Virus genome (UHGV): UHGV-1374526
From: a virus
DNA: 64,000 nt
Direction: 5' to 3' (one strand)
The notes under the pieces were generated by a model, which was not told the DNA's origin, searched no databases, and saw only the letters and a list, made by a program, of their open reading frames with translations. The position numbers and the translations under genes are program-made. Of the stretch, positions 13,702-64,000 are shown one piece after another (positions within the stretch are counted from its first letter, which is position 1; each line of letters opens with the position of its first letter).

Positions 13702-13730
13702 TTGACCTTCTGGACTTTGTGGGATATATT
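13702..13730 (+). promoter_or_regulatory. Sigma70-type promoter TTGACC-N17-TATATT ending 5 nt before the ATG (leaderless)
   Basis: -35 at 13702-13707 and -10 at 13725-13730, with the ATG at 13736. Confidence 0.45.
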
Positions 13731-13735
13731 CTCCT

Positions 13736-14251
13736 ATGCAACTAGTAGGAGTTGACCCCGGAACCCACGGAGCCCTTGTACTCGCGGACACCCGGAGCAA
13801 GAAAATCTGGATAAAGCACATGCCAGAAGACGAAAGGGAACTGGAAATCATATTGAACAAACTGCCACGTAGCCGTCATCGTATCATGTACATTGAGAAG
13901 ATGAGCTATGCCATGAGCGGAGGCGGCAAGGTGTCCAATCCGAGAAGTAGTGGCGTATTGGGAGAGGCAACCGGGAAGGTCCTCGGTTACGCCGCGGCGG
14001 CGGGGTACACCGTCACAAAGGTTTCCCCAATCGTATGGATGCGGGCTATGGGCGCGTATGATACGGGCCTGACTGCCCGGGACCGCACGAAGTGGAAGAA
14101 CAACCTGAAACGCATCGCGATGGAGAACTTCCCCGGCGCGAAGGTGACATTGCAGAACGCGGACGCTCTTCTCATTCTATTGTACGCGTACCGGGAACTG
14201 AACGACGACCACACACTGACCCTCGACAACTGGGATATAGAAAGAATCTGA
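13736..14251 (+). CDS. RuvC-like Holliday junction resolvase
   Basis: N-terminal MQLVGVDPGTHGALVL matches the RuvC ...G(I/V)DPG motif. Later acidic residues are present. The size (171 aa) fits. Confidence 0.6.
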   Translation: MQLVGVDPGTHGALVLADTRSKKIWIKHMPEDERELEIILNKLPRSRHRIMYIEKMSYAMSGGGKVSNPRSSGVLGEATGKVLGYAAAAGYTVTKVSPIVWMRAMGAYDTGLTARDRTKWKNNLKRIAMENFPGAKVTLQNADALLILLYAYRELNDDHTLTLDNWDIERI

Positions 14252-16743: not shown

Positions 16744-16771
16744 TTGACAACGTCGTCCATTCGCGTATAGT
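16744..16771 (+). promoter_or_regulatory. Sigma70-type promoter TTGACA-N16-TATAGT ending 6 nt before the ATG (leaderless)
   Basis: -10 at 16766-16771 and the ATG at 16778. Confidence 0.5.
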
Positions 16772-16777
16772 GGGGCC

Positions 16778-17542
16778 ATGCCGAAACCCGAATCAATTCA
16801 AGAAGTCTTCCGTCGTTGGACCCCGGTAGCTCTCATGAACTTGCCGGAGGAAGTGAAGACCCCAGAAACGTTCCCCGATTATATGGGGACGGATGATGAA
16901 CCGTTGCCTGTTGGTCATAGTCAGGGAATTCTAACGGTCATTGGGTACTCCCACGATGTCCGATATCCGTATGTCGCGCAATGTGCATGTGGGAATGTGG
17001 TCACGATGAACCGTCTGCAATTAACGCGCAAGCAACACCATTGTGGATGCCTGACCCAAATCATGCGCTCATCCTATCTTATCCGCTTGCGGGTAGAAGC
17101 TATGCGTTCATGGTGGCAACAGGTTCCTCTGTGGCTCGATGACCTTGACAAGCTTCGCGAACACGCGAAGAAGTACAAGAAGGCCGTCAAGAGAACGAAC
17201 AAGTACAATGCCAAGCTCTCCCATGTCGAGTACGCGGACGACCCGCTGACGTTTGACAGGGAGGTAGAGACCTCCGGTAGCCCTGACGGGGTGGACGCTT
17301 TCCTTTCCCTCATCGCACCGTCGGAGGAATATAGTCAGTTCCTACGCAGTATTGCCGAGAAGCTGACCAAGGAATATAAACCTTGGCCCGCAATCCCGAT
17401 GGCGAATACAAGCGCGTATGCCAGTTACAAGAACGAACTGCCCGAATTTGACGCGGCTACCTTCATTAACTTCGTCAACTACCTTGCAGACGCACAAGAG
17501 GATAAAAACCTGAAACCTACGTCCGACAATGGCGATAAGTGA
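16778..17542 (+). CDS. Hypothetical protein
   Basis: A 254-aa ORF in the gene train. Confidence 0.4.
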   Translation: MPKPESIQEVFRRWTPVALMNLPEEVKTPETFPDYMGTDDEPLPVGHSQGILTVIGYSHDVRYPYVAQCACGNVVTMNRLQLTRKQHHCGCLTQIMRSSYLIRLRVEAMRSWWQQVPLWLDDLDKLREHAKKYKKAVKRTNKYNAKLSHVEYADDPLTFDREVETSGSPDGVDAFLSLIAPSEEYSQFLRSIAEKLTKEYKPWPAIPMANTSAYASYKNELPEFDAATFINFVNYLADAQEDKNLKPTSDNGDK

Positions 17543-28253: not shown

Positions 28254-28281
28254 TCTTGACAAATAATAAAATTATTATATG
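28254..28281 (+). promoter_or_regulatory. Sigma70-type promoter region (TTGACA at 28256-28261; AT-rich -10 around 28276-28281)
   Basis: The -10 assignment is ambiguous (spacer 14-16). The ATG at 28290 is within ~9 nt, so the transcript is probably leaderless. Confidence 0.4.
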
Positions 28282-28289
28282 GTGGTGGC

Positions 28290-28877
28290 ATGTCCAAGAC
28301 ATCAAACACCAAACAGATAACCAAGATTGTTATTGACGAGGCCAATGGCTTGACACACGTTTATATGTCAGACCTTAGCCCGAAGATAGTTAAAGCCAAT
28401 ACCTCGGCCCCAACGAACATTCCTACCAAGAGCGAATTCTCTTTTCGCGATGAATCCGTAGAATCGCAAGCAGTAGTTGAGAAGGCCTTTGACGAAGTAT
28501 TCCCGGAGGAAGATGGGCATCCTCAACTGTTCTGCCCAATCTGCGGTGGTCTATTGAGAGAAGCACGTCGCGGCAACTACGTGTTCGTAGAGTGTATGAG
28601 TTGCGAATTAGCGGTGCTGGGAGATGATAGTGACGATTATGAAGAGGCGAAGGAAAAGGCATGGCTTACCGCCCGCCAGTTTATTGAAGAACTCCCTCCG
28701 CTTCTGCGTCTCCAACCCGGCGCCGAAATCCAGTACTACGACGGCATGTTCCATAGGCATACCGGAATCGTTGCAGGAAGAACCCGCGTCTCCATGCGCA
28801 TCCTGTTGGAGGATGGGCGAAGCATTGACCCCAGCAGGATAGTTGAATGGCCGTGGGGAATGGAGCAAGCCGAGTAA
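28290..28877 (+). CDS. Zn-ribbon protein, paralog A (CPICGG...CMSCE)
   Basis: Two CxxC pairs. Its C-terminal domain is shared with the next gene (…IVEWPWGMEQAE versus …IEKWPWELERVN). Confidence 0.45.
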   Translation: MSKTSNTKQITKIVIDEANGLTHVYMSDLSPKIVKANTSAPTNIPTKSEFSFRDESVESQAVVEKAFDEVFPEEDGHPQLFCPICGGLLREARRGNYVFVECMSCELAVLGDDSDDYEEAKEKAWLTARQFIEELPPLLRLQPGAEIQYYDGMFHRHTGIVAGRTRVSMRILLEDGRSIDPSRIVEWPWGMEQAE

Positions 28878-46102: not shown

Positions 46103-49100
46103 ATGGCTATTGACTTTAGTACCGCCAATATGTCCGACTTCACTCCGAAGTCGGGAAGCAGTATTGCACGTGAACAGCGAGCCGCAGAAAGGCACGCCGC
46201 GTGGCAAGAGACGCAAGCGCAGAAACAGCAGGACCGAGAACAGAAAGCACTGGACCGCGAGCAAAGGTTAGCGGAAAAGAAACAGACCCGTGCCGAGAAG
46301 GGAGCGACGGCGACCGCAGACTATGACACCTTCCTCTTTAAGTCTGTTGATGACTTTGCGGAGAAACAGAAAAAGGATGCGGAACACGCAAATAATGTAG
46401 AATGGCAAAATAAATCCCGCGCCCATACGGAACAAGAATGGAAAACCGCCGAGGAAAATAAAGCCCTCGACATCTTGAACAAAGGAAACCGTGGGTACAG
46501 CTTTGAGGGAATCGACTACATGAAAGACTATGTAGACCGCGGGGAAGATGCGCTGGTCGATTTGAAGGCCGCTTCCCGCGGTGATAGCGAGGCCATTAAG
46601 AAGCTTGCCAACAATACGGGACTTACCGTTGTGTCTTCTTCCGAGCTTACGCCTACGCACCCCACCTTCTTATCCCGCTCTGGCTTCGGAAGTGGAGAGG
46701 ACGGGAACCCCGTCGTAACGGAAAAGTTCCTCGCCATTGCCGCGGACAGAAACCGTAACGCAAAGGCGGTTGCCAAAGGCATTGCCAACACAATGGAAAA
46801 GGCCCGGAAGGATTACCTCAACTCGAATCTAGATGTTGGAACGGGTAAACCTACGGCGCAAGCCATCGAGACCGCACCTATTGCTTACACCGCAGAAGAA
46901 ATAGAAAGCGTCATCAATACGATTAGGCGCGAAGACATTGGCAACTATCGTGCCGCTAAGGCTCTTTACGACAAACACCGCTCTTCTTCGACGGAAGGCG
47001 TGCAGAAGAAAACCCCCAGCCAAACGAGCGTGGGGGAGCTTGGCGTTGGCGAATTCTCTGATTCAGCACCTTCATTTACTGGGAATGTTTTTGCTGAACT
47101 CGCCAACCTTTCCAAGTCTCCCAGCAAAATGTTCCAGCTTGTCCGCGACTACGGGGATTACCTTTCCCGGAGTACGGAAGATATTGAATCCCCGGAATCT
47201 GCTACAGCGGATGCGAAACAACTCCATACAGACCAAGCAAAACTCATTTCAAAAAAAGAAAAACCTGTTGAGGATAGGATTCGTGAACAGATAGAAACAG
47301 CCGACAAAATCGTAAGACGCCTCGAAGAGGACTACACTGGCCTTCCCTATCTCGAACTTCGCGACGCGCTTCTCAATCCAGAGGCCGCGGCCTCTGCCCT
47401 TCTGTCTTTAGTCCCCGGTGCTGACATGGACGCAATACGTGCACGGGCAAAGGTCATTACCGAGGAAGTTCGCCGCCAGAAGGACCGCCCTCTGACCGTC
47501 GAAAACCCCGAACAGATTGGCATGAGTGAGGCTATACTGGAAGCCGTGGCCACAAGGTTTCCGGGGGTTCCAAAATCTGCCCTGCGCCAAGCGGGAGTAA
47601 CCAAACTGATTCAGGACTATACCGCCAAAGCCACGCCGAAAGGCACTCTCATGGATGCAGTCAAAGGCGCACTGGCTAACTACCGAAGCACGGCGGGACA
47701 AATTGCGGACGTACTTACCTTCCAACCGGATAATAGTGTGGGTAAGTACGCCGACCCAATGAGCTTGATGGAATGGAGGAAGGGAACGAGGCGTGGCTCA
47801 TGGTGGTATGGCATGCCGGGCGGCCCGTCCTTTGAAGTCGGACCGGAGAGGTTGAAGGAATACATGGCCCAGTACCATATTGAAAGTACTCGCGATGCCC
47901 TCAACTCCCTCTCCCATGCCGCACGTATGGGTGACTTGGGCGTTGGCCGTGGCAGTCTCTTTGCGTACAATCCGCACACCAAGGAAGTTGATACGAACGC
48001 CACGCTCGAACTGAATCCCAATGCTCTCTACAATGATAAGCTGATGGACCAGAGCATTGAGGCTCTCCGTGCTAGTGGCGCGGACGAGAAGCTTATCAAT
48101 CGCACCATTGAGAAGTTCCAGAACCTCCGCAAGAAATCCGCACAGGAACTTGTGAAGGACAACATGGCATTGGACGAGACGCTGGGGACGCTTCGCGATA
48201 CGTGGCTTGGCTCCGGCTTGCAGTTCAACCCTGTCTTGACTGAATCCATGAAGCATCTGGACAAGTACCTTTCCTTCAAGAATTTCTACAACGAACAGAA
48301 GGAAGCGGGCAAGAGCGACGAGGACATCCTCTCCGCATGGCAGGAGAAAGGGCAAGCCACCTTCGATTCTGTTCTCCGTGGGTTACAGATAGGTACACAC
48401 AAGGCAATCGACCTTGGGACAAGTACCGCCTATGGTGCTCTTCTCTTTGCACAGAATGCAGTTGGCAGTCGTGCGGCGATGGAACATACCCGCACCCTCT
48501 GGGACCAGCTGAACAAAAAACAGGAAGCAGAAGCCGAGTTGGTTCGAGGCAATATCCTTGCGGACTATACTGCGGAAATCGCTAACCTCGGCTACCAAAT
48601 GGTAGCAACCGCGGGGGCTGGTAAAGTTGGTGGCCTCGCTGGCCGTGCACTGACACGTACCGCGCTCAATAAATTCATGAAGGCAACGGCTAACGTCGTA
48701 GCGAAGCGGGCCGAAGCTCTTGTCCCTGCCGCCCGTCCGGGATTGGCGGGACGTTTGAGTGGAACTATTCAGCGCAACCTCGACAACCTTGCGGCGTTGA
48801 ACCTCGAACGGGCAGGAGCCGGAGCCGGGGTAAATCTTAGCATCATCTCGCAGGTTGCACCGAATGCTTACTCCGACATCTTCTATACCATTTATGATAG
48901 GGAGATGGAAGGGAAGGAACCGACTGCCGAGAACACGAACAGGGCACAGAGCATTGCCAACATGCGTGCTCTCTTTGGTGCGGCTCTCGTATCTACTGGT
49001 AGTACTCTCATCAACAACCGCGCAGGTATGGATTCCTTCATGCGTAAGATTGTTGGGGCTAAAAACCTTCGCGGTCAATCTCCATTCCAAACTCTTGAAC

Positions 49101-52100
49101 GGAAGATGGCCGGATGGAGAAGCAAGCCATTTAAGGAGATGAACACGAAGGAAAAGACGTTTGCCGTTGCTTCCTATCTGTACAGCCAGAGCAAGGCCGT
49201 AGTGGAAGGAGCCACCGAAGAACTGGCAGACGAATTCCAAGAGTGGGCGTTTACCGAACTGGTGAAGAACGGAGAAATCTCCGAATCCTCTATTGCCACT
49301 ACTGACCAAGTGATTAGCACAGGCATGAAGATTGCTTTCCTCGGAGGTATCGGCGGCTACGTTGGTAGCCACTTAGCTGGTGAAGGGAACATACGTTTCC
49401 AAACCGAAGCCGCTCCCACTCTCGATGTAAAGGATGCTACTTCCATGCTACCGGATATTACGAAAGATGCGAGCAACATCATCGAGGAAACGGGCAAAGC
49501 CATTACCAAAAACAATGTGCCGGAAAGCTTGGTAGAAACCGGAAAGAAGGTTATCGAGATTGCCGGGGAGAAGGGAGATGCCGCGGAAGTTGCCCGCGAA
49601 TGGGTGGACAAATCCATTGCCCATGAAAGTCTGGCAGTCTCCGATGAAACCCGCAAGGCGTGGGTGGAAGGAGCAACCCGTATGGGCATCAGCAACTTCA
49701 CCCAGTTCCGCAACCTAGTGGAACGGGCCTCCGAAATATATACCTATGAGGGCAGTGCCGCGGCAAGCTCATTCATGGCAGAAGCCATTAACGACCTGCC
49801 CAATACCCTGTCATTCCCAAATAAGGAAAACCTCGACACCATGCGCACCATGCTTTCGGAGGCCCTTGATGCTATGGGAGACCGGGTTCAGGTTATCGAA
49901 GTAGACGACGACCTGTCCATCATTACTACAGGGGACGAGGACCTTGATGCCGCCATTAACGTTATTAACGGATTGACGGAAGCCGCGGCTACCACGGAAC
50001 CCAAGGAATCCCCGGCTACCGCGGAACCCACGGAATCCCCGGTAGCTATTGCCCGGAAGGAGAGGGACAATGCTATTGCCCCCATCACTGCTATGGTAGA
50101 GACGGGAGTAGTTACCCCAGAAGCTACCGCTTCCGTGGATAACATGGATGCGGCAATCACCTCGTTCGACCCCAACACCGGGGCATGGCTCTCATCCGGT
50201 TCACCTCTGGACCGCGGCGCGAAGCTCGTCTCCCTGAACGAGATGACCGGGATTAACGCCCCCATGATTACCAGCAACACGGGAGAAACCGTTGTCATCG
50301 CTCCGCACGCAAGCATGTACAACACAGGTGAGGGAGGGACACCCAGCACCAAGTGGGGGGACAAGGTCTCCGCTCTCAATCTCCCGACGGATGGGACTGG
50401 CGCAAATGCCTACGGCACGCTTCGCGGCCTTCAAGTTAATGCCTCCCCCGCACAGGCCGCGGCCATTGATGGAGTGCTCCGCGCACTGCATGCCGCTGGT
50501 TTGGACGTCGCTATCCGTGCAACCAATGCCCCGGCGAACATCTCTTCCCCTGCCAGTATCACCTACATGAACGGCACGGACGGGAAGCTTGTCGGCGGTG
50601 TCATTGACCTGTACGTGAACCGGGATAACCCGATTGAAAGCGTAACGGGAACGGTACTACACGAAGTCATCCACCTCATTGACCGTCATCTTCGTACCAC
50701 CAACACGGACTATTCCCAGCGGATGGATAGGATTAGAAGCGCGATTGCAGAGAACTACAACAACATTGTCGATAGTCTCTCCGCTATGTATGACGCTAGC
50801 GTGGACATCAATGAGATGAACGCCATCGCCGCGCTCGCTTCCGACCTCAACTACGGTCTCCGCGGTGCGGACGAATTTGCCAGTGTCGCGTTCTCCAATC
50901 CTGTCATGAACTTCATGGTAGCGGAAGCTAGCGGAGACAATATCACCATCACGGATTTGGCTCGCTATGCCGAAGCGGCGGGAGGCCGGAAGCCCGTGCA
51001 CGTGCGCCTCGTCGAATGGCTTAAAGATTTGATTAGGGACATCAAAGATACTGCGGACGATATGGACGGAACCACCGCCGCAGAACGCGTGGCTGAATGG
51101 GATTCCTATGTGGCCCGCGTCGCGGACATGACCCCCGGCAAGTGGTTCGATATGCCTCGCACTCCGTCATGGAAAGTAGATGATACGGATTATACTATGG
51201 GCAACGGGGTAGATTATTTTAACCCGATGGCCTATGAGACCGACATGACCCGGAGATTGTCCTTCGGCCTTGGCGCAGAAATCATTGGCACGAAGGCCGG
51301 GAACTGGGTAACTAGTATTAAGAACGTATGGCAAGGCGTGTCTAAGGGCTTGGACAAAGCAGGCATCAATGTTAAGTCCGAGGAACAGAAGCTGGTTGTG
51401 CTGGAACAAATGGCCAATGTTAATGCGGCGTATGAACGCAGTATTAAACGCATTGACAAAATTGGTGATATGCTTCAACGCCGTGCGGATAATCTGGGCT
51501 GGGATGCCGCTACGCGAAAGAAATGGAGCAAGTCCATTCTTGACATGTCGGGGAATATGGACAACGATATTGACCCTGAAACTGTTGCACGCATTAACGC
51601 AGAGGCTCAAGCAGAAGTTCGTCAGCATGAACAGACCCGCGACTTCCGTATCGCGTTGGCTAAGAAGACTGTCACCGATGCCGTCAATAGGCACGCGGAA
51701 GCGGTGCGTCTGGCTAACTCCCTTGCGCTTAATAGTGAAGGGCGATTGGAAATCAACGACATGATGCGCCGGATTAAAGACATGAGCGGCAAGGGATATG
51801 GAGCCATGCTGGACAAGCAGGTAGCTCTCCCCATGCTCTCCCAGCAGATTCACAAATCTCTCTCCGACCTTGGCTCTCGTATCTCCGCGACGGGGGATGC
51901 CAATCTGGATATCACCTACTTTGGCCTTGCCCGCGACACGCAAAACTATCTCGCGGATATGATTAACGAAGTGGATAGTCCCTTCTCTATGGATGAACTT
52001 CTGGACAGGTGGTCCAACCTTCGCAATGACTTCCTCTATGCGGAGAGTACAAACCATCCCGTCATCGCTCCTATGATTCAGGACATCGCTAAGGCACGGG

Positions 52101-55100
52101 CCGAAGCTAAACAAATCATCCGGGAAGCCAATGATGATTTCCACGCCGCAACAAAGAGGGCAGGTGTAACTCGCGCTGGCGTAGCTACCCCTGCTGGTTC
52201 CGTGTGGCTGAAACGAGACAACGCTATCCTCAATGCTCGCCGTCAAAAACAAGCGGAGTATATGGCTAAGCGGGATGCCGCTGAACAGTGGCTTCTGTCA
52301 CAAGGAGTTGTAGGCCAACTGGTCCACAATGTCATCGCCGATTCCCGTAAAGAAATTGCCGCAACGCAAATCTCTATTGCCAAGCTCATTGGAGATAGCC
52401 GTATGGCTGACAACGCCGCGGAGATGAATTATCTTCATCGCACCTACATGGCCGTTGGACGCCATGCCGGAGACTTCACCCGGACGATGAAGGACATCAT
52501 CGCAAACCCCAACGGAGAACTGGCGCAGAAATACGATGGTCTGACGAAACTGTTGCAGGAAGCCGCAATCTCTCATGCCGAAGCGCACCAGAGAGAACTA
52601 TCCGAAAACGTAAGCCAAGTGCTGGACAACATGCAGGCATTGGCCGCGCTCCACGACGAGTTGAAACTTCCGCTGGTGTCAGCTCCCACGGGAGCCTCTT
52701 CGAATTATAAACTCCTGTTCGAAGGTGTAGCCAAGAACTACAGGACCAGAGAAATTCTTGACTTCATTCAGAACAACTTCGGTCAGGTTCAAATGCTTGC
52801 GGACTTGAGGGACGGCCACAACATCAGTGCCATATATAATAAGGCCATGAGCATGATAGCACAGGCAGACTATCGCACGAAGTCAAAGATGACAGAGAGG
52901 AAGGAAACTCTGGACATGAATGCCAGAGATAGTTTCCTCGCTGATGTCTTCTCCAGCCTTCCGGGAAAAACGATTGCGGACAAAATCGGCAGTCTTCAAT
53001 CCCCGGCATCCGTGGCTTCCGAAGTGAACAAGGCCATCCCCACTATCCCGACTTCGGCCATTGACCAGATATGGAACACGCCTAATATGAATGCCGCAGA
53101 ACGACTGGACAAGACGCTCAATCTTCTTCGCGGTCAGGCTGGCGTTCTCATGAGGATGAACGGCATGGGCAACGTCATCTCCGCTACCGACTTGAAAGCG
53201 TTGCAATATCCGGAACTCTCCCGTCTTGCGGTGAACGATGCCATGAAGGCCATTGACGAAGTACTGTCCAAGAAGAGGACGAATGAAGATGCGCTGGCCC
53301 AGCGGAAACGCTTGCCCGAATGGCAGAGGAAAGCTATGTATGAACTTAGCGACCTCACCATTGGGGATGCCATTGGGACGTTACAGAATACCCTATCCAT
53401 GCAGTCGAAGATTGCCGTGAACCAGTTGCTTGCTGACGAGTATACCTCCGTACTGAAAGCGCAGGGTGTGGTCGTACCCCCGAATTCCACGAACCGTACT
53501 TCGGACATGGTGGAAATCTCCTTGAAGAATACGAAGAATGCGTTGAACGGAATGTACGCCGACAAGGATGTAGCCGATGCCATCTACCGCATCTACAGGC
53601 CGAGCGACGACATCCTGAATAGCAGGACGGACGACTATAAGGAGGTCCGCGAGTACTGGCAGAAGTCCGGCAAGGGGCAAGGATGGTGGAGTAAGGCGGG
53701 TGGCTTGGCTAACCTTTCTGTCTTAATAGCGAGTCCTAATTCCACGTTACGTAACTTATATGGTACAGTAGCTCAAATGACCCATGCGGGTGCACTTCCA
53801 TTCACGGGGAGTAAAGAAATCGCAAAGCTTATCGGAGATTGGAGCCAGATGTATAAACTGCGGAAGTTGTCCCGCGGTAAAGACCTTGCTTCACAGGCTT
53901 CCGCGGATAGACTGCTGGCCGCGGAAGACAGGTACAACGAGAAGATTCGCTACTGGCAAGAGCTTGGTCTGCTGGACGCAGGTCAAGGGGAGTTCCTGCG
54001 CAACGTCTGGAAGTCTGACGAGTTCAGTAAGATGGCAGGAGAATTTGAAGAAGTGAATGAGGATTCCTTCTTCAAACTGGCCGAAGCTCTGAACGAGAAA
54101 CAGGAACGGACGAAGGGCGAGGTGGCTAAGGATGTCGCCAAGACGGCGGGCAAAGTCGTAGCATGGCCCATCAAAACGATGTCCTTCGCCTATGGCTTGC
54201 CGGACGCGGCGGCCAAGATTGCTCTCTTCACTAACCAGAGAGCGATTGCCGATACCCAATTAAAGGTACAACTGGCACGGGCGAAAGGCAAGGCCAACCC
54301 CAATGCACGGGACCAGATACTCCTTGACGCGAGCCAGACTACCCAGAGTTGGGATGCTTATGTGGACAGGTATACTGCCAACATGGTGAAGAGCTTGCTC
54401 CCCACGGGTTCGCGTACTCCTTCGTGGGTGAAAACCCTGAATATAGTTGCGGCTCCGTTCTTCATGTTCCAGTACCATACCTTCCAGTCTGTAGCCTACA
54501 ACCTTGGCCACGCCATAGGTGAAGGGGTAGACGGTGTGTGGGCTATCAATAACGGCATGAAGAAGGAGGGGGCTTACCTCTTGGGACGCGCTATCCTTCG
54601 CATCGCTGGTTCCGCAGTAACTATTGGTGCAACCTCTGCGGTCTCTTCCTGGGTTGCCCGACAGATTATCGCCAGTGTCTTGGGAGATGACGATGACCAT
54701 AAAATCATTGACGACGCGGAAGTCATGAGGAAGCTGGCAGATAGTGGGCTAATTCCTGACTATGATAAGTTCGGGGACTTGATTGGCATCATAGATATGA
54801 AGCGACATGAGTTCGAGTATTTGACCCTTGAATACATGAACCCGTTCAAGACCATCAGGGTGTTAGCCAAACCCCTGCCCAGCCTCTTCATGGATATGGA
54901 TGTGGACAAGTGGGGGATGAACAAGGTTGCCGAACTGAAAAACCTGCTGGAAAATACGGTGCTTGAAGAATCCCTCCTTCTGAACACAGCTACTGAATTG
55001 TTTAATGAGGAAGACTTCAATTACAAGCATAGCCTCTCCGGTGATGAAAGCGTCAACGTTCTCCCGGCAGTCGGCAACGCAATCCTGTTGGCCGCAGGGC

Positions 55101-55798
55101 TGAACCCCTCGTTCGGCAGTGGACACACGTGGCAAGCCCTTGAACGTGTCGCGACGGTTGCCAATAAAAAGATTCCCGTCTACGGCTGGTTAGTCAAGTC
55201 TGGTAAACAAATGTTTAGTGATACGCCCGACATGAGTGCCGAGGCATACGGGTTACAGACCTTTGGTACTGGTCTCCGTCGTCCGAAGGATTTGACCGAA
55301 GCCCTTGCCGCCGGGTTAAAGAATGCCAACGCGGCAGTCACTAAGTCGAAGCGAATGAGCGTCCTTCGTCCGGACTTCTACAAGAGAATGGAATCCGGGG
55401 TGGATGTGGAATCTATGGAAGCCGTGGAAACCGCGGATGCCGTGAAGAATTTCACCAAGCTAGTCAATAGTGTCCGGTTTGTTACGGAAATTACAAACAT
55501 GCTTGACCCCGCTCTGCGGAAGGAAGTTCTGGCTTCCGCGATTGAGAGTTCCGGTATGAGTGCCAAGACCTACGGCGCGGCCATGAAAGGCATCATGCCC
55601 TACATCATTAGCCCGCAAGCAGGACGTGAGGCTATCGCGAAACTCAACCGCGAATTGCAGAAGTCTAATACCACGGACGAGGGCAAACGCCTAATCGAAG
55701 AGCAGAAGAAACTCATTATCAACCTCATGAGGAAGGGTAGCATTCAGATTGATGGGGCATTGAGTGCGGAGGAAATTCATAATCGGATGAAGCAGTAG
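46103..55798 (+). CDS. Giant virion/ejection protein (3231 aa) with zincin-like HExxH motif
   Basis: It is a single uninterrupted ORF. HEVIH lies within TGTVLHEVIHLIDRH at ~50650-50700. There are long helical regions and Gly/Ala-rich segments, and the gene sits after the tail genes. No polymerase catalytic motif was recognised by eye. Confidence 0.6.
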   Translation: MAIDFSTANMSDFTPKSGSSIAREQRAAERHAAWQETQAQKQQDREQKALDREQRLAEKKQTRAEKGATATADYDTFLFKSVDDFAEKQKKDAEHANNVEWQNKSRAHTEQEWKTAEENKALDILNKGNRGYSFEGIDYMKDYVDRGEDALVDLKAASRGDSEAIKKLANNTGLTVVSSSELTPTHPTFLSRSGFGSGEDGNPVVTEKFLAIAADRNRNAKAVAKGIANTMEKARKDYLNSNLDVGTGKPTAQAIETAPIAYTAEEIESVINTIRREDIGNYRAAKALYDKHRSSSTEGVQKKTPSQTSVGELGVGEFSDSAPSFTGNVFAELANLSKSPSKMFQLVRDYGDYLSRSTEDIESPESATADAKQLHTDQAKLISKKEKPVEDRIREQIETADKIVRRLEEDYTGLPYLELRDALLNPEAAASALLSLVPGADMDAIRARAKVITEEVRRQKDRPLTVENPEQIGMSEAILEAVATRFPGVPKSALRQAGVTKLIQDYTAKATPKGTLMDAVKGALANYRSTAGQIADVLTFQPDNSVGKYADPMSLMEWRKGTRRGSWWYGMPGGPSFEVGPERLKEYMAQYHIESTRDALNSLSHAARMGDLGVGRGSLFAYNPHTKEVDTNATLELNPNALYNDKLMDQSIEALRASGADEKLINRTIEKFQNLRKKSAQELVKDNMALDETLGTLRDTWLGSGLQFNPVLTESMKHLDKYLSFKNFYNEQKEAGKSDEDILSAWQEKGQATFDSVLRGLQIGTHKAIDLGTSTAYGALLFAQNAVGSRAAMEHTRTLWDQLNKKQEAEAELVRGNILADYTAEIANLGYQMVATAGAGKVGGLAGRALTRTALNKFMKATANVVAKRAEALVPAARPGLAGRLSGTIQRNLDNLAALNLERAGAGAGVNLSIISQVAPNAYSDIFYTIYDREMEGKEPTAENTNRAQSIANMRALFGAALVSTGSTLINNRAGMDSFMRKIVGAKNLRGQSPFQTLERKMAGWRSKPFKEMNTKEKTFAVASYLYSQSKAVVEGATEELADEFQEWAFTELVKNGEISESSIATTDQVISTGMKIAFLGGIGGYVGSHLAGEGNIRFQTEAAPTLDVKDATSMLPDITKDASNIIEETGKAITKNNVPESLVETGKKVIEIAGEKGDAAEVAREWVDKSIAHESLAVSDETRKAWVEGATRMGISNFTQFRNLVERASEIYTYEGSAAASSFMAEAINDLPNTLSFPNKENLDTMRTMLSEALDAMGDRVQVIEVDDDLSIITTGDEDLDAAINVINGLTEAAATTEPKESPATAEPTESPVAIARKERDNAIAPITAMVETGVVTPEATASVDNMDAAITSFDPNTGAWLSSGSPLDRGAKLVSLNEMTGINAPMITSNTGETVVIAPHASMYNTGEGGTPSTKWGDKVSALNLPTDGTGANAYGTLRGLQVNASPAQAAAIDGVLRALHAAGLDVAIRATNAPANISSPASITYMNGTDGKLVGGVIDLYVNRDNPIESVTGTVLHEVIHLIDRHLRTTNTDYSQRMDRIRSAIAENYNNIVDSLSAMYDASVDINEMNAIAALASDLNYGLRGADEFASVAFSNPVMNFMVAEASGDNITITDLARYAEAAGGRKPVHVRLVEWLKDLIRDIKDTADDMDGTTAAERVAEWDSYVARVADMTPGKWFDMPRTPSWKVDDTDYTMGNGVDYFNPMAYETDMTRRLSFGLGAEIIGTKAGNWVTSIKNVWQGVSKGLDKAGINVKSEEQKLVVLEQMANVNAAYERSIKRIDKIGDMLQRRADNLGWDAATRKKWSKSILDMSGNMDNDIDPETVARINAEAQAEVRQHEQTRDFRIALAKKTVTDAVNRHAEAVRLANSLALNSEGRLEINDMMRRIKDMSGKGYGAMLDKQVALPMLSQQIHKSLSDLGSRISATGDANLDITYFGLARDTQNYLADMINEVDSPFSMDELLDRWSNLRNDFLYAESTNHPVIAPMIQDIAKARAEAKQIIREANDDFHAATKRAGVTRAGVATPAGSVWLKRDNAILNARRQKQAEYMAKRDAAEQWLLSQGVVGQLVHNVIADSRKEIAATQISIAKLIGDSRMADNAAEMNYLHRTYMAVGRHAGDFTRTMKDIIANPNGELAQKYDGLTKLLQEAAISHAEAHQRELSENVSQVLDNMQALAALHDELKLPLVSAPTGASSNYKLLFEGVAKNYRTREILDFIQNNFGQVQMLADLRDGHNISAIYNKAMSMIAQADYRTKSKMTERKETLDMNARDSFLADVFSSLPGKTIADKIGSLQSPASVASEVNKAIPTIPTSAIDQIWNTPNMNAAERLDKTLNLLRGQAGVLMRMNGMGNVISATDLKALQYPELSRLAVNDAMKAIDEVLSKKRTNEDALAQRKRLPEWQRKAMYELSDLTIGDAIGTLQNTLSMQSKIAVNQLLADEYTSVLKAQGVVVPPNSTNRTSDMVEISLKNTKNALNGMYADKDVADAIYRIYRPSDDILNSRTDDYKEVREYWQKSGKGQGWWSKAGGLANLSVLIASPNSTLRNLYGTVAQMTHAGALPFTGSKEIAKLIGDWSQMYKLRKLSRGKDLASQASADRLLAAEDRYNEKIRYWQELGLLDAGQGEFLRNVWKSDEFSKMAGEFEEVNEDSFFKLAEALNEKQERTKGEVAKDVAKTAGKVVAWPIKTMSFAYGLPDAAAKIALFTNQRAIADTQLKVQLARAKGKANPNARDQILLDASQTTQSWDAYVDRYTANMVKSLLPTGSRTPSWVKTLNIVAAPFFMFQYHTFQSVAYNLGHAIGEGVDGVWAINNGMKKEGAYLLGRAILRIAGSAVTIGATSAVSSWVARQIIASVLGDDDDHKIIDDAEVMRKLADSGLIPDYDKFGDLIGIIDMKRHEFEYLTLEYMNPFKTIRVLAKPLPSLFMDMDVDKWGMNKVAELKNLLENTVLEESLLLNTATELFNEEDFNYKHSLSGDESVNVLPAVGNAILLAAGLNPSFGSGHTWQALERVATVANKKIPVYGWLVKSGKQMFSDTPDMSAEAYGLQTFGTGLRRPKDLTEALAAGLKNANAAVTKSKRMSVLRPDFYKRMESGVDVESMEAVETADAVKNFTKLVNSVRFVTEITNMLDPALRKEVLASAIESSGMSAKTYGAAMKGIMPYIISPQAGREAIAKLNRELQKSNTTDEGKRLIEEQKKLIINLMRKGSIQIDGALSAEEIHNRMKQ

Positions 55799-55814: not shown

Positions 55815-55843
55815 TTGACCTTCGGGGGCATGGGAGATATAAT
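55815..55843 (+). promoter_or_regulatory. Consensus sigma70 promoter TTGACC-N17-TATAAT whose -10 is flanked by a perfect 12-bp inverted repeat GGGCATGGGAGA / TCTCCCATGCCC (55826-55855); leaderless ATG at 55850
   Basis: Direct reading. The start codon lies inside the right arm. Confidence 0.55.
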
Positions 55844-55849
55844 TCTCCC

Positions 55850-56455
55850 ATGCCCTCTTTTCGTATAGTACCCAATCATATCATGGCCACCCCTCCGGGA
55901 GGCTGGAAGTTTATTGTCCCTGAATCCATGAGTGTCAGGCTCAAGGGAACCAAGGTTTCCGCGGGTTCACTGGAACAACTCCGCAAGGCGGTCGCCCGTC
56001 TCTTCATGAATAACGGAGAACCCTTTCAGGTTGCGCTCTTTGAATCAGAGCTTTGCGCTTCTCTCCCTCCCCAGTACTGCACCACCTGCGGTGATAAGGG
56101 AATTGAATGGAAGGAGTATGAACCCATGAGTGCCAAGAAGATATTGGCCTTCTTCGGTACTATGGTTCTCTGGTATCGACGGGGACACAGGTTTGTAGAC
56201 GAGGCAGAAGCTCGCCGCCGCTATGCTATCTGCGCCTCCTGTCCGTATGCTACCTCTACGCCTCCCCCGGATTTAGAGAAGCAAGGGTGCGCCACATGTG
56301 GAGCCGAAGGAGCTGGCCGCAAATTCCTCAAGGAAAAAATCTCCGGGCTTGCGGACCTGACCAACGGGAAGGCCCCTCTCTATTGTACCTTATGTGGTTG
56401 CGACCTATCAGTAAAGGCTCACTTCGATATTGAATCTGACTGCTGGCTAAAATAG
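55850..56455 (+). CDS. Cys-rich hypothetical protein (CTTCGD, CASCPY, CATCG, CTLCGC)
   Basis: A 201-aa ORF with several CxxC pairs. Confidence 0.45.
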   Translation: MPSFRIVPNHIMATPPGGWKFIVPESMSVRLKGTKVSAGSLEQLRKAVARLFMNNGEPFQVALFESELCASLPPQYCTTCGDKGIEWKEYEPMSAKKILAFFGTMVLWYRRGHRFVDEAEARRRYAICASCPYATSTPPPDLEKQGCATCGAEGAGRKFLKEKISGLADLTNGKAPLYCTLCGCDLSVKAHFDIESDCWLK

Positions 56456-56855: not shown

Positions 56856-56945
56856 GTATTGACATCATAGGTACTGCATGGTATAAAGAATCCACAACGA
56901 CATCATTCTGTTTGGACTGTAAGTTGTTTGGGTTCTAAGCGAAAA

Positions 56946-56980
56946 CCCCGGAAGGAAATATCTTCCGGGGTTTTTGTTTT
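56946..56980. terminator. Bidirectional rho-independent terminator (AAAA-ccccggaag-gaaatat-cttccgggg-TTTTTGTTTT) at the convergence of the rightward and leftward modules
   Basis: A perfect 9-bp stem has an A-run on one side and a T-run on the other. It lies between the + gene ending at 56855 and the - gene ending at 56979. Confidence 0.75.
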
Positions 56981-62408: not shown

Positions 62409-62522
62409 ATTCTTGATAGTAGTGGTTATAACTTTTTGGATTTCGTTCGTATTCTTTTTTCTGTTCCTCCATTATCTCCCGAGTTAAACGGGAAACCCGA
62501 AGGAGTGCAAGAAATTGTTGGG

Positions 62523-63098
62523 TTAAACTCTTAGATTGCATTGGAAGGAATCTTTGTGGAGCGAGAGGATTTCATCCTTAGATAGCGTGCTCATGTTAAG
62601 CACCATGTGGTCAGGCGTCATGGACAGAATCTCCGCACCCGGCTCCGTAGGAAATATACAACCCAATTTAACGGAGCGGGCAAGAGATGGGCGGGCCTTA
62701 AACATAGCGTCGTAAAGGGTTTTGCTATACCTAACGGCGTAAAAATTATGGTAGGAAAATAGGGTCGCATAATCATGGTTTTCTCCGCGCTTCACCTTAT
62801 GGTAGTTGAGACGAATGATGCGCACCGTTCTATCCTCATAGGCATTTGGGTCGTAGAGTGTCCTAACCGCAAAGAAGATGCCTGACGTGAATACCTCCCC
62901 AATACCGAAGGATTCAATCTGGAATTTGGTCTGTTCAGATTGGAGAATATTATCCTCCGGGTTCCGGGGAATATAGAACTCTCCCTTGACATGGGCAGGA
63001 AGAACCATAGGGCTTCCAAGTTTTCCGGTACGACCATTATTATCCCGTGCCCAAGAATGAAGGAGCATGATTTGTTGAGCGAGTGCGATAGGTTTCAT
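62523..63098 (-). CDS. Hypothetical protein
   Basis: The start was moved to MKPIALAQ (63098) so that the conserved upstream 22-bp motif is intergenic. Confidence 0.4.
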   Translation of the reverse strand: MKPIALAQQIMLLHSWARDNNGRTGKLGSPMVLPAHVKGEFYIPRNPEDNILQSEQTKFQIESFGIGEVFTSGIFFAVRTLYDPNAYEDRTVRIIRLNYHKVKRGENHDYATLFSYHNFYAVRYSKTLYDAMFKARPSLARSVKLGCIFPTEPGAEILSMTPDHMVLNMSTLSKDEILSLHKDSFQCNLRV

Positions 63099-63114
63099 AT
63101 CTGTTTTGTTTTTG

Positions 63115-63136
63115 TAGAGCGATGTGAGGTTTCTAA
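63115..63136 (-). promoter_or_regulatory. Conserved 22-nt element, copy 3 (minus-strand TTAGAAACCTCACATCGCTCTA)
   Basis: It is identical at 21 of 22 positions to copy 1 and sits ~17 nt upstream of the start at 63098. Confidence 0.5.
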
Positions 63137-63486
63137 ATATCCAGTTTCCAGCGAATAGTTGGGTAGCCGTCCTCACTGGATTCAAGGTAAAGGAAGATGC
63201 CGTCACGAGATATTACGAAGGTCACGCTATCTGGGACGTACCCGCACAGATAAATGTATATATCCTTGACAACCATAGAATAGGGCAACCTATAGGTTCG
63301 TATGGGGAAGATGTTTTCTCCAGTCTTTGATGATATTGTTTGTTGAAGACAAAGTAGCATCCGCTTTTTCCGACTAGATATTTTGAAGCTGATTGCAAGA
63401 GGGTCCTGCTCTTTCGGCTTATCGGGGTACGGCTTCCTTCCAGTTGTGGTTTCTGCTTGGCTAAGTATTAGGTCAAAATTCTCCAT
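63133..63486 (-). CDS. Hypothetical protein
   Basis: A 117-aa ORF preceded by the conserved motif. Confidence 0.35.
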   Translation of the reverse strand: MENFDLILSQAETTTGRKPYPDKPKEQDPLAISFKISSRKKRMLLCLQQTISSKTGENIFPIRTYRLPYSMVVKDIYIYLCGYVPDSVTFVISRDGIFLYLESSEDGYPTIRWKLDI

Positions 63487-63494
63487 AATAATTT

Positions 63495-63517
63495 CTAGCG
63501 TGCTTTGAGGTTTCTAA
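63495..63517 (-). promoter_or_regulatory. Conserved 22-nt element, copy 2 (minus-strand TTAGAAACCTCAAAGCACGCTAG)
   Basis: It shares TTAGAAACCTCA..G..CGCT. It begins at the stop codon of the upstream gene. Confidence 0.45.
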
Positions 63518-63871
63518 TTAGAAGATAGGTCGAGTGAATCCCATGTCTTCAAGGCAACGGGCGAGGCGATTTGCTTCCAGCTGATGCCGCTTTAGGCGTC
63601 GGCGTATGATGTCAATGCCCCATTCTACCAGTAGCTGGAAGACAAACCAGCCCGTGATGATGACGCACCATGTAAGGTACGATACGAGAAGTTCACCAGT
63701 GGCAAGGAGATAACCTAAACAAACCAGCGCACTTACGAGGGCAACAATGTCCACTACCGAGTGCAGGTGCTCCACGAGGCTCCACAAGGCATGAAGCCTA
63801 TCGGCTCGCCCGATGTGGTGGAGACAGTTCTTGCGGAGGATGACGACGTTAGATTCTTTTTCGGATGTCAT
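63518..63871 (-). CDS. Small membrane protein
   Basis: Hydrophobic helices (LVCLGYLLATGELLVSYLTWCVIITGWFVFQLLV). It is preceded by the conserved motif. Confidence 0.4.
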   Translation of the reverse strand: MTSEKESNVVILRKNCLHHIGRADRLHALWSLVEHLHSVVDIVALVSALVCLGYLLATGELLVSYLTWCVIITGWFVFQLLVEWGIDIIRRRLKRHQLEANRLARCLEDMGFTRPIF

Positions 63872-63875
63872 ACTA

Positions 63876-63897
63876 TAGAGCTATGTGAGGTTTCTAA
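63876..63897 (-). promoter_or_regulatory. Conserved 22-nt element, copy 1 (minus-strand TTAGAAACCTCACATAGCTCTA), directly followed by TAGT-ATG
   Basis: It abuts the start codon of 63518-63871. Confidence 0.5.
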
Positions 63898-63901
63898 GGG
63901 T

Positions 63902-64000
63902 TCAACGGAGTACGAGCTTCACGGTTTCCAGATTCAATTCATCGTGCCATTTGTTGCTCGTAAACTTCACCATGCAGGGGAGGAAGAAACGTTCTGCCAG
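63902..64000 (-). CDS. 3' end of a leftward gene that begins beyond the window
   Basis: The open frame ...LAERFFLPCMVKFTSNKWHDELNLETVKLVLR ends with stop TGA at 63902-63904, 4 nt before the conserved motif. Confidence 0.3.
   Translation of the reverse strand: MAERFFLPCMVKFTSNKWHDELNLETVKLVLR

Follow-up and report, generated by a model that had tools for sequence, protein, structure and literature searches.

Five small early genes of a human-gut phage are each preceded by a conserved 21-nt element, here named the F box, which we tentatively read as a compact, phage-specific promoter tied to gene cassettes and used by the host polymerase together with a putative phage factor. We infer that it acts on DNA as a promoter, and likewise where its transcripts would start and what would recognise it. 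The initial annotation had noted three such elements and taken them for T3/T7-type promoters of a single-subunit RNA polymerase. The elements turned out to be real and non-random and to act like a compact expression signal of the downstream gene; the T3/T7 assignment did not survive, as no such polymerase was found and the likeness is at chance level.

The window (the whole stretch of DNA analysed, 64 kb) is part of a human-gut phage genome of ~69.6 kb, as mapping on near-identical contigs revealed, and the missing ~5.6 kb wraps from the right end of the window to its left end. The contig JGI 3300045988 Ga0495776_014779 is 99.98% identical to the window across 10.5 kb. The exact sequence of a 117-aa protein from the region studied here is indexed in 62 blocks of a metagenome collection and is encoded on many near-complete human-gut metagenome contigs of 67–72 kb. 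The plus strand carries the genes for a primase-helicase, a family A DNA polymerase, a helicase, an exonuclease, the terminase and the structural proteins, as well as an ORF of 3231 aa. Convergent with these, the minus strand encodes small ORFans, an NAD-dependent ligase, ThyX and a DUF3310 protein that also matches PHROG nucleotide-kinase families. The remaining ~5.6 kb encodes ten small leftward genes, all ORFs of ≤249 aa. No tRNAs were found in the phage and no close relative among deposited phages; the search for a host, by a terminase scan of genome contigs and in the literature, gave no match. Via ligase homologs (~50% identity) we reached two sister phage lineages, A and B, which share their gene order with the window.

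Copies of the F box and the early gene cluster

The exact 12-mer TTAGAAACCTCA occurs three times in the 64-kb window, on the minus strand only (63125–36, 63506–17 and 63886–97). No further match was found in the 64 kb at 0 or 1 mismatch, and the four other sites in the window with 2 mismatches correspond to chance level. By an arithmetic estimate, ~0.008 exact matches per 12-mer are expected in 128 kb (two strands). The repeated unit is 21 nt long, from TAG to CTA, and is followed by an A-rich stretch. Each window copy lies in a gap of 30–34 nt between consecutive leftward genes, encoding 201 (partial), 117, 117 and 191 aa. In order along the direction of the genes, the features are:

Just past the window end: F box copy, TTAGAACCCTCAAATAACTCTA, ahead of the 109-aa gene
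Just past the window end: F box copy 5, TTAGAACCAACAAAGAACACTA, ahead of the 201-aa gene
63902..64000, minus strand: 3′ end of the 201-aa gene, conserved; stop codon TGA at 63904–63902
63876..63896, minus strand: F box copy 1, TAGAAACCTCACATAGCTCTA; starts 4–5 nt past the TGA of the 201-aa gene; last A 5 nt ahead of the ATG of the first 117-aa gene
63518..63871, minus strand: first 117-aa gene, with hydrophobic segments; copy 1 ahead
63496..63516, minus strand: F box copy 2, TAGAAACCTCAAAGCACGCTA; 0–1 nt past the TAA of the first 117-aa gene; last A 10 nt ahead of the ATG of the second 117-aa gene
63133..63486, minus strand: second 117-aa gene, a variable cassette between copies 2 and 3
63115..63135, minus strand: F box copy 3, TAGAAACCTCACATCGCTCTA; its own TAG is the stop codon of the second 117-aa gene; last A 17 nt ahead of the ATG of the 191-aa gene
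62523..63098, minus strand: 191-aa gene; copy 3 ahead

The three minus-strand elements before consecutive leftward genes were thus present exactly as first described, and so was their placement at or after the upstream stop codon: shortly after TGA for copy 1, at TAA for copy 2, and with TAG as the stop itself for copy 3. The distance to the next ATG, originally given as 0–17 nt, was roughly right, being 4, 8 and 16 nt when counted from the 22–23-nt elements of that description. A search of the rest of the genome for further copies, as had been suggested there, added the two just past the window end, which gives five in the whole genome. In other strains, copy 2 has a second allele, ...CACATAGCTCTA, which from its sequence looks like a product of gene conversion from copy 1.

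The five flanked proteins (117, 117, 191, 201 and 109 aa) show no similarity among each other and are not paralogs. We therefore rejected the possibility that the repeat is a by-product of tandem duplication of paralogous genes.

All F copies are located downstream of strong early promoters of the same orientation, without a terminator between. Farther upstream in the cluster there are five units in which a perfect TTGACA-N16-TAAAyT promoter is combined with a GC hairpin and with a leader that carries TAGAAAG 9–10 nt ahead of the ATG. With this fixed spacing, TAGAAAG may have a Shine-Dalgarno-like role in those separate leaders. For the TAGAA of the F box such a role was rejected, since its spacing to the ATG varies.

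The early cluster also contains a compact sister element, B (yTGAAWAR-y-TACRCCGCYCTA-nAAAA), with 340 sense and 0 antisense occurrences. B and the F box share their build, with T(A)GAA at the 5′ end, then ~12 nt, CyCTA and an A-rich run. Element B is also found just upstream of ordinary promoters and therefore cannot serve the translation of the next gene. The plus strand and the late genes showed neither B nor the F box.

Conservation, strand bias and turnover of gene cassettes

Across 55 distinct contexts the consensus of the box is T1 A2 G3 A4 A5 m C7 C8 t C10 A11 m A13 t a r C17 t C19 T20 A21, followed by nAAAA. A11, A13, C17 and C19 are invariant in these contexts, at positions that the search pattern had left free. 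The box pattern (TAGAA-m-CC-t-CA-m-A-tar-C-t-CTA, then A-rich) matches the window at the three sites only. Over 875 kb of related loci we counted 257 occurrences in gene sense and 0 in antisense.

In the two sister lineages (~50% protein identity) the box is found in the same syntenic gaps ahead of the same genes; its conserved blocks are kept and the interior is lineage-specific. Lineage A carries CTAGAAMCCTCATAGAACGCTA and CTAGAAYCYTCATATAACSCTA ahead of the orthologous 202-, 113/115- and 188-aa genes, and in lineage B TAGAACCAAAGACAACGCTA occurs three times and is 20 nt long, as it lacks one base near position 9. The orthologs of the first 117-aa gene in both lineages align from Met1. Among more distant relatives, L101 has loosely similar TAGAACCT sites only and L102 has no such sites.

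Strains of the phage differ in the genes that stand between the boxes, and the box-to-box spacings fall into classes of 380+381 nt, 380 nt only, and 380+617 nt. In some strains the second 117-aa gene is absent, replaced or joined by another cassette, in some the 191-aa gene is present as a tandem duplicate with an F box for each copy, and in others an extra 116-aa gene is inserted or a 178-aa gene is preceded by a box. All these gains, losses and duplications are bounded by boxes, and every cassette has its own. As the same 21 bp precede unrelated genes, box-to-box recombination would add, delete and duplicate cassettes. In T4-type phages, repeated early promoter/stem-loop cassettes (PeSLs) mediate a similar shuffling of genes (PMC2839356, PMC4122927). 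Like the F box, they stand before small non-essential ORFs in a plastic early region, and where close relatives differ by inserted, deleted or duplicated small ORFs, the repeats mark the boundaries (PMC2839356, PMC4122927). The F box differs from them in being neither a sigma70-type promoter nor a stem-loop; true PeSL-like units (class H: TTGACA-N16-TAAAyT plus GC hairpin) are those farther upstream in the cluster of the same phage.

The box might on this account have no expression role of its own and persist as a homology block that serves as a recombination joint for cassettes, or is simply copied along. We consider this improbable. Where strains have lost the second 117-aa gene, duplicated the 191-aa gene or acquired the 116-aa gene, the change is always box-bounded, as a joint would predict, and the second allele of copy 2 resembles gene conversion. 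A joint needs identity, though, whereas the box keeps a set of fixed and free positions across three lineages at 50% protein identity. Both the 257:0 strand bias and the strict placement between stop codon and ATG indicate that it is read out in gene sense, and the recombining repeats of the T4 precedent are themselves functional promoters and terminators (PMC2839356).

The exchange between strains also shows to which gene the box belongs. Its interior variant stays coupled to the leader and gene that follow, even where the upstream flank differs, which argues that the box is the 5′ signal of the gene behind it and not a 3′ signal of the gene before it. This linkage bears on another reading, namely that the box is a sequence-specific transcription end or pause signal of the preceding gene. 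Its 5′ edge does often touch or include the upstream stop codon. In phage P23-45, a conserved 26-nt motif is found at termination sites of the virion polymerase (gp96), so that unstructured conserved motifs can mark such sites (PMC10770324). Besides the linkage to the downstream gene, the distances speak against an end signal, as two copies sit 30–33 nt from the preceding stop and those of lineage A >100 nt. Moreover, termination before each small gene would be counter-productive without an antiterminator, as the operon continues into essential nucleotide-metabolism genes. We regard an end or pause signal as very improbable.

Start sites, leaders and the level at which the box acts

No sigma70-like site (≥9/12 matches) was found on the minus strand between 62413 and 64000, though such sites are present at the five early cassettes upstream of the F region and at genes downstream of it. 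The replication and structural genes carry TTGACA-N16/17-TATAAT sites, for which the host polymerase is thus evidently used, and the F box is not ahead of them. The initial annotation was therefore correct in setting the element apart from the TTGACA/TATAAT promoters used elsewhere. Three of the ordinary promoters are:

13702–13730: ordinary promoter, ATG at 13736
16744–16771: ordinary promoter, ATG at 16778
55815–55843: ordinary promoter, ATG at 55850

The -10 hexamers of these three end 5–6 nt ahead of the ATGs, so leaderless or near-leaderless mRNAs appear to be usable in the host.

The position of A21 relative to the start codon limits where transcription could begin. The lineage A box ahead of the 113/115-aa gene ends in ...GCTATG, its last A being the A of the ATG, and four orthologs align from Met1 of this start codon. 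A start that serves the adjacent gene must therefore be at or before A21. The A21-to-ATG distance is 0 in this case and 5, 7, 8, 8, 10, 12, 13, 16, 17 and 17 nt in others, and 19–37 nt for the copy before the 109-aa gene. Distances of 0–17 nt, with one copy up to 37, are natural for a promoter and not for a ribosome-binding element.

Several conventional readings were rejected on these grounds. A sigma70-type promoter is not compatible with the lack of a site at 62413–64000 and with conserved blocks that are too close for a -35/-10 pair. Two-block readings of the sigma70, ECF (GAAC...TCTAA) and sigma32-like types were discarded by eye, because the blocks are 5–7 bp too close or the start would fall inside genes. 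A -10 hexamer opened by the TA of CTA is excluded, as the start must be at or before A21. A boxA/nut-like reading of GCTCTA-CAAAAACAA rests on a weak resemblance, and one site per gene does not fit it. No stable RNA structure was predicted for the box, with folding energies weaker than those of shuffled sequences (z +0.8 to +2.1), and no relevant Rfam match was found at E ≤1 for the whole early cluster. Hairpin and other RNA-structure explanations were rejected on these two results.

The promoter that we propose would work outside the ordinary -35/-10 geometry. A polymerase complex would recognise ~20 bp, contacting the blocks TAGAAmCC (about -20 to -13), CA-A (about -11 to -8) and C-CTA (-4 to +1). 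Transcription would start at or next to the terminal A and yield leaders of 0 to ~17 nt with no Shine-Dalgarno sequence. The recogniser would most likely be the host RNA polymerase redirected by a putative small early phage protein, as in T4 middle and late transcription, and less likely a phage polymerase that escaped detection. The five tandem boxes would drive a block of small accessory genes, and read-through from them would also feed the downstream nucleotide-metabolism genes (ligase, ThyX and kinase). The shuffling of cassettes would be a consequence of the box repeats.

The promoter reading draws on the 21-nt consensus with its invariant A11, A13, C17 and C19 and on the 257:0 strand bias. 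It is further suggested by the use of the same syntenic gaps in two sister lineages that keep the conserved blocks, and by the box interior that travels with the downstream gene. The identity of A21 with the A of ATG in lineage A and the short distances elsewhere are in line with it, as are the ordinary promoters of the same phage 5–6 nt before ATGs, and so is the absence of any sigma70-like site from the F region. RNA structure and Rfam matches are lacking, and promoter-cassette shuffling has its precedent in T4-type phages (PMC2839356, PMC4122927).

Other observations weigh against a promoter. Among the early proteins we found no sigma-like factor, no MotA/AsiA-like protein and no polymerase. 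The conserved blocks are too close for any -35/-10 pair of the sigma70 family, and if the start is the last A, positions -12 to -7 read TCAmAT, which puts a C at the critical -11 A. Since all copies stand behind strong early promoters without a terminator between, extra promoters are not strictly needed, and since the late genes have ordinary promoters, there is no obvious need for a polymerase switch.

The main rival to the promoter reading is an RNA-level processing or control site, a kind of signal that the initial annotation had also allowed for. The box would then be an unstructured 21-nt site in the polycistronic early transcript. A sequence-specific endoribonuclease or RNA-binding protein, encoded by phage or host, would read it and either cut before each cistron or control translation or decay, comparable to T4 RegB or RegA. 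The box is strictly sense and intergenic and always lies within a transcribed unit behind strong promoters, and its lack of structure would suit such a site. Cleavage at the terminal A would produce the same short leaders as a promoter, and the failure to find a polymerase or sigma-like factor also fits. An unstructured 21-nt target with ~13 fixed positions would, on the other hand, be unusual for known phage RNases; RegB recognises GGAG. A distance of 0–37 nt to the AUG argues against a translational operator that covers the start site, and the early proteins showed no nuclease or RNA-binding domain. Sister element B is also located upstream of early promoters, and is there absent from their transcripts. 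There is a precedent for intergenic processing, as RegB cuts T4 early mRNAs at specific intergenic sites (PMC2988021). On balance we judge an RNA-level site unlikely.

Phage polymerases and known transcription systems

Promoters of the T7/T3/SP6 group span ~23 bp, from -17 to +6. They resemble the F box in being a compact, strand-specific, intergenic single block of ~20 bp conserved up to the likely start, with near-identical copies per genome and lineage-specific variants in related phages. In contrast to them, the F box has no cognate polymerase in the complete genome and no initiating GGG, and its similarity is at chance level. The best ungapped matches to the T7, T3, SP6 and K11 promoters cover 10–12 of 23 positions, and 25–95% of same-sequence shuffles match or exceed this resemblance. 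The group consensus, ..CACTATAG / CTCACTAAAG with an initiating G-run, is not found, and no G-run follows the box. Furthermore, the F copies are limited to five adjacent gaps of the early leftward cluster, with none before the middle and late gene classes.

The initial annotation had also supposed that the polymerase would be encoded outside the window. The remaining ~5.6 kb contains no RNA polymerase match among its ORFs of ≤249 aa, and the profile search proposed earlier, carried out on the whole genome with Pfam and PHROGs, returned no ORF that matches an RNA polymerase family. The Pfam and/or PHROG scans covered all eight ORFs of ≥600 aa as well as the early proteins. Four of the eight are the primase-helicase, DNA polymerase A, terminase and ligase. 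The other four (756, 715, 971 and 3231 aa) have no polymerase match in Pfam, PHROGs or PDB. Judged by eye, the 756-aa ORF resembles a portal, whereas those of 715 and 971 aa resemble tail proteins. T7 polymerase motifs A, B and C are absent from these three, and DxDxD is absent from the 715- and 971-aa ORFs.

The 3231-aa ORF was examined in more depth. Early promoters of the N4 virion polymerase are short hairpins with a stem of 5–7 bp and a 3-nt loop, and the two-barrel virion polymerases (crAss-like gp66 and P23-45 gp96) have a metal-binding DxDxD motif (DFDxD/DFDGD). Comparison of the 3231-aa ORF with the N4 polymerase (gp50) gave an hhalign probability of 0.2% (4-sequence profile) and BLASTP E values of 0.17 or worse. 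The same four-sequence profile retrieved no polymerase from PDB, and no similarity was found in INPHARED. The only D-x-D-x-D of the protein is DNDID at residues 1820–1824; it reads DNDIE in lineage B and is absent from the homologs P0242 and P0243 (28–30% identity), while HExxH is invariant in the protein and its homologs. A search of 1.8 billion representatives yielded only 8 relatives, none of them informative. A low-confidence single-sequence AlphaFold model of residues 1985–3184 (pLDDT 38) was all-helical, with no strands.

These data bear on the reading of the box as a promoter either of a T7/T3-like single-subunit polymerase or of a polymerase, N4-like or two-barrel, concealed in the giant virion protein. 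The length of ~21 bp would fit non-sigma polymerases, as would a conservation that reaches the presumed start and the missing -35/-10 pair, and the virion systems of P23-45 and N4 also combine a short motif before few early genes with a giant conserved protein near the structural genes. Giant virion proteins of N4, the crAss-like phage phi14:2 and P23-45 do conceal divergent polymerases (PMC10770324; 10.1101/2020.03.07.982082), and the 3231-aa ORF is kept in all relatives. Against this stand the want of a polymerase match for any ORF of the complete genome and the chance-level promoter resemblance, together with large ORFs that either have no T7-type motifs (715 and 971 aa) or are portal-like (756 aa). 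As to the giant protein, the N4 comparison was negative, the DxDxD signature is not conserved and the shared invariant motif is HExxH instead; the low-confidence model has no strands. The box itself has no hairpin, which N4 promoters need. The T7-type reading is already largely refuted, and we hold a promoter for a polymerase of either kind to be highly improbable.

Parallels to the proposed redirection of the host polymerase come from T4. Its late promoters, TATAAATA, are read by gp55/gp33 with the host core polymerase and are, as we propose for the F box, short and -35-less, relying on the host polymerase and a small, poorly conserved sigma-like phage protein. The F box differs from them in sequence and in length (21 nt vs 8 nt), and the late genes of this phage have ordinary promoters. 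In T4 middle promoters, the MotA box lies 12 ± 1 bp upstream of the sigma70 -10 element (PMC2988021). A phage-specific box in the place of the -35 is also conceivable here, as TAGAAmC stands 12 bp from a TAnnnn that starts at the TA of CTA. The implied start would, however, fall inside the coding sequence in 5/12 cases (A21 0, 5, 7, 8 and 8 nt from the ATG), the F-box "spacer" has invariant positions, and the hexamer mostly has A instead of T at position 6. Despite the fitting 12-bp spacing the MotA-type reading was rejected, since the start falls beyond the ATG; no MotA/AsiA homolog was found.

Compact phage-specific promoters and promoter-bounded gene cassettes are already known kinds. What is new is the build of the F box, conserved through the presumed start with no -35/-10 and no hairpin, along with its sister element B and the absence of a recognisable reader. 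It would be a long shot that the F box and B are promoters of a transcription system below current profile detection, either an ORFan-redirected host polymerase or a hidden polymerase activity (e.g. in the 3200–3400-aa HExxH family). Such a system, if true, would recognise ~20 bp abutting the start point, in a prevalent uncultivated human-gut phage.

The phage is common in human-gut metagenomes and almost none of its genes has a known function. The 21-nt signal marks which of its early genes form one regulatory class, and with an own box on each cassette it shows how accessory genes are exchanged in this lineage. It also provides a handle for mapping transcript 5′ ends in existing metatranscriptomes and a bait for its reader protein. 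Should that reader prove to be a new polymerase-redirecting factor, the few well-understood phage transcription switches would gain one more case.

Cassettes and leaders of the early genes

The leftward early cluster, which continues past the right end of the window and wraps to its left end, was examined in L001, the locus that covers this stretch. Two repeated features are found there:

L001 3197-8047, leftward early cluster: five repeated cassettes
L001 4970-8000, with the equivalent stretch in ~90 related loci: element B, compact and intergenic

Each of the five cassettes begins with a perfect sigma70-type promoter (TTGACA-N16-TAAAyT, frequently with an extended TG), followed by a GC-rich hairpin placed at the extreme 5′ end of the transcript and by a conserved leader. 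This build is identical to that of the PeSL units (early promoter plus stem-loop) of T4-type phages. Some of the genes served by the cassettes are paralogs of each other (122/109 aa and 142/141 aa). Element B, with the sequence yTGAAWAR-y-TACRCCGCYCTA-nAAAA, is a second element whose general architecture matches that of the F box, the 21-nt element found in front of minus-strand genes. It was found 340 times in gene sense vs 0 times in antisense across L001 and the related loci, and it is located either ahead of a leader or immediately upstream of an ordinary early promoter.

The early-gene leaders of every lineage (L001, L059, L062, L101) carry TAGAAAG at a constant 9-10 nt from the ATG, with AGAAAGGGA in its place in the distant relative L101, and no GGAGG-type Shine-Dalgarno sequences were detected in the leaders of these four loci. 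A 16S rRNA 3′ tail ending ...CCUUUCUA would be complementary to the 7-mer TAGAAAG, which, judged by its sequence, is a candidate that could act as a shifted ribosome-binding site. For the NAD-dependent ligase of the phage (window 59009-61054, minus strand), the closest cellular homologs, ranking after the sister phages, are from Opitutaceae (Verrucomicrobiota) at ~31% identity. Together with a G+C content of 51% this hints at an Akkermansia-like host, for which a genome scan and the literature both gave no confirmation.

Plus-strand operons and the giant open reading frame

Several plus-strand genes are preceded by strong TTGACA/TATAAT-type promoters, and the plus strand also carries a very long open reading frame:

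13702-13738, plus strand: promoter
16744-16780, plus strand: promoter
~28256-28292, plus strand: promoter
55815-55852, plus strand: promoter
46103-55798, plus strand: 3231-aa open reading frame

The promoters end only 5-6 nt before the ATG, which implies that several replication and structural operons would be expressed as leaderless mRNAs, a prediction made from promoter position.

The 3231-aa protein has no match in Pfam, PHROG or PDB, and in a set of 1.8 billion representative proteins its family counts only eight members. All eight have ~3200-3400 aa and are encoded at the end of the structural module. Homologs down to 28% identity retain, without exception, an HExxH..D.H motif (residues 1520-1529), and the C-terminal 1200 residues are all-helical in a low-confidence model. 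We predict that the product is probably an internal virion protein that is injected and contains a zincin-like domain.

Repeats, hairpins and box-like sites

Non-coding features are located at the start of the divergent early region and where the gene blocks meet:

1-55: tandem array, 9-mer ACGGGTTCA x6
103-303: tandem array, 19-mer TAAGTCCAGCCTAACTTT x11
451-587: tandem array, exact 42-mer x3.3
56937-56979: long GC hairpin flanked by T-runs on both sides
56825-56804, minus strand: terminator-like hairpin

The three arrays, which could be iterons of an origin or of a regulatory kind, are contained in a gene-poor 3.7-kb stretch. One 10-mer from the first array, CGTTGAACCC, is seen again at 63907-63898, immediately ahead of F box copy 1. 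Both hairpins are close to the convergence point of the plus- and minus-strand gene blocks, and the long one is predicted to be, probably, a bidirectional terminator. Long perfect hairpins without a T-run were also seen in the sister phages (L029 1828-1861, lineage A, 15-bp stem; L059 ~5620-5700, lineage B, nested 8+11-bp stem), within the non-coding stretch ahead of the first F-cluster gene.

In L101, whose giant protein is 30% identical to that of the phage, box-like sites are found in gene-sense intergenic gaps:

L101 25285-25320, minus strand: TTAGAACCTCAACATAAATCATC-ATG
L101 27890-27935, minus strand: TAGAACCTAAAAATAAT-ATG

On this slender evidence, the 5′ half of the F box (TAGAACCTCA) may predate the three close lineages.
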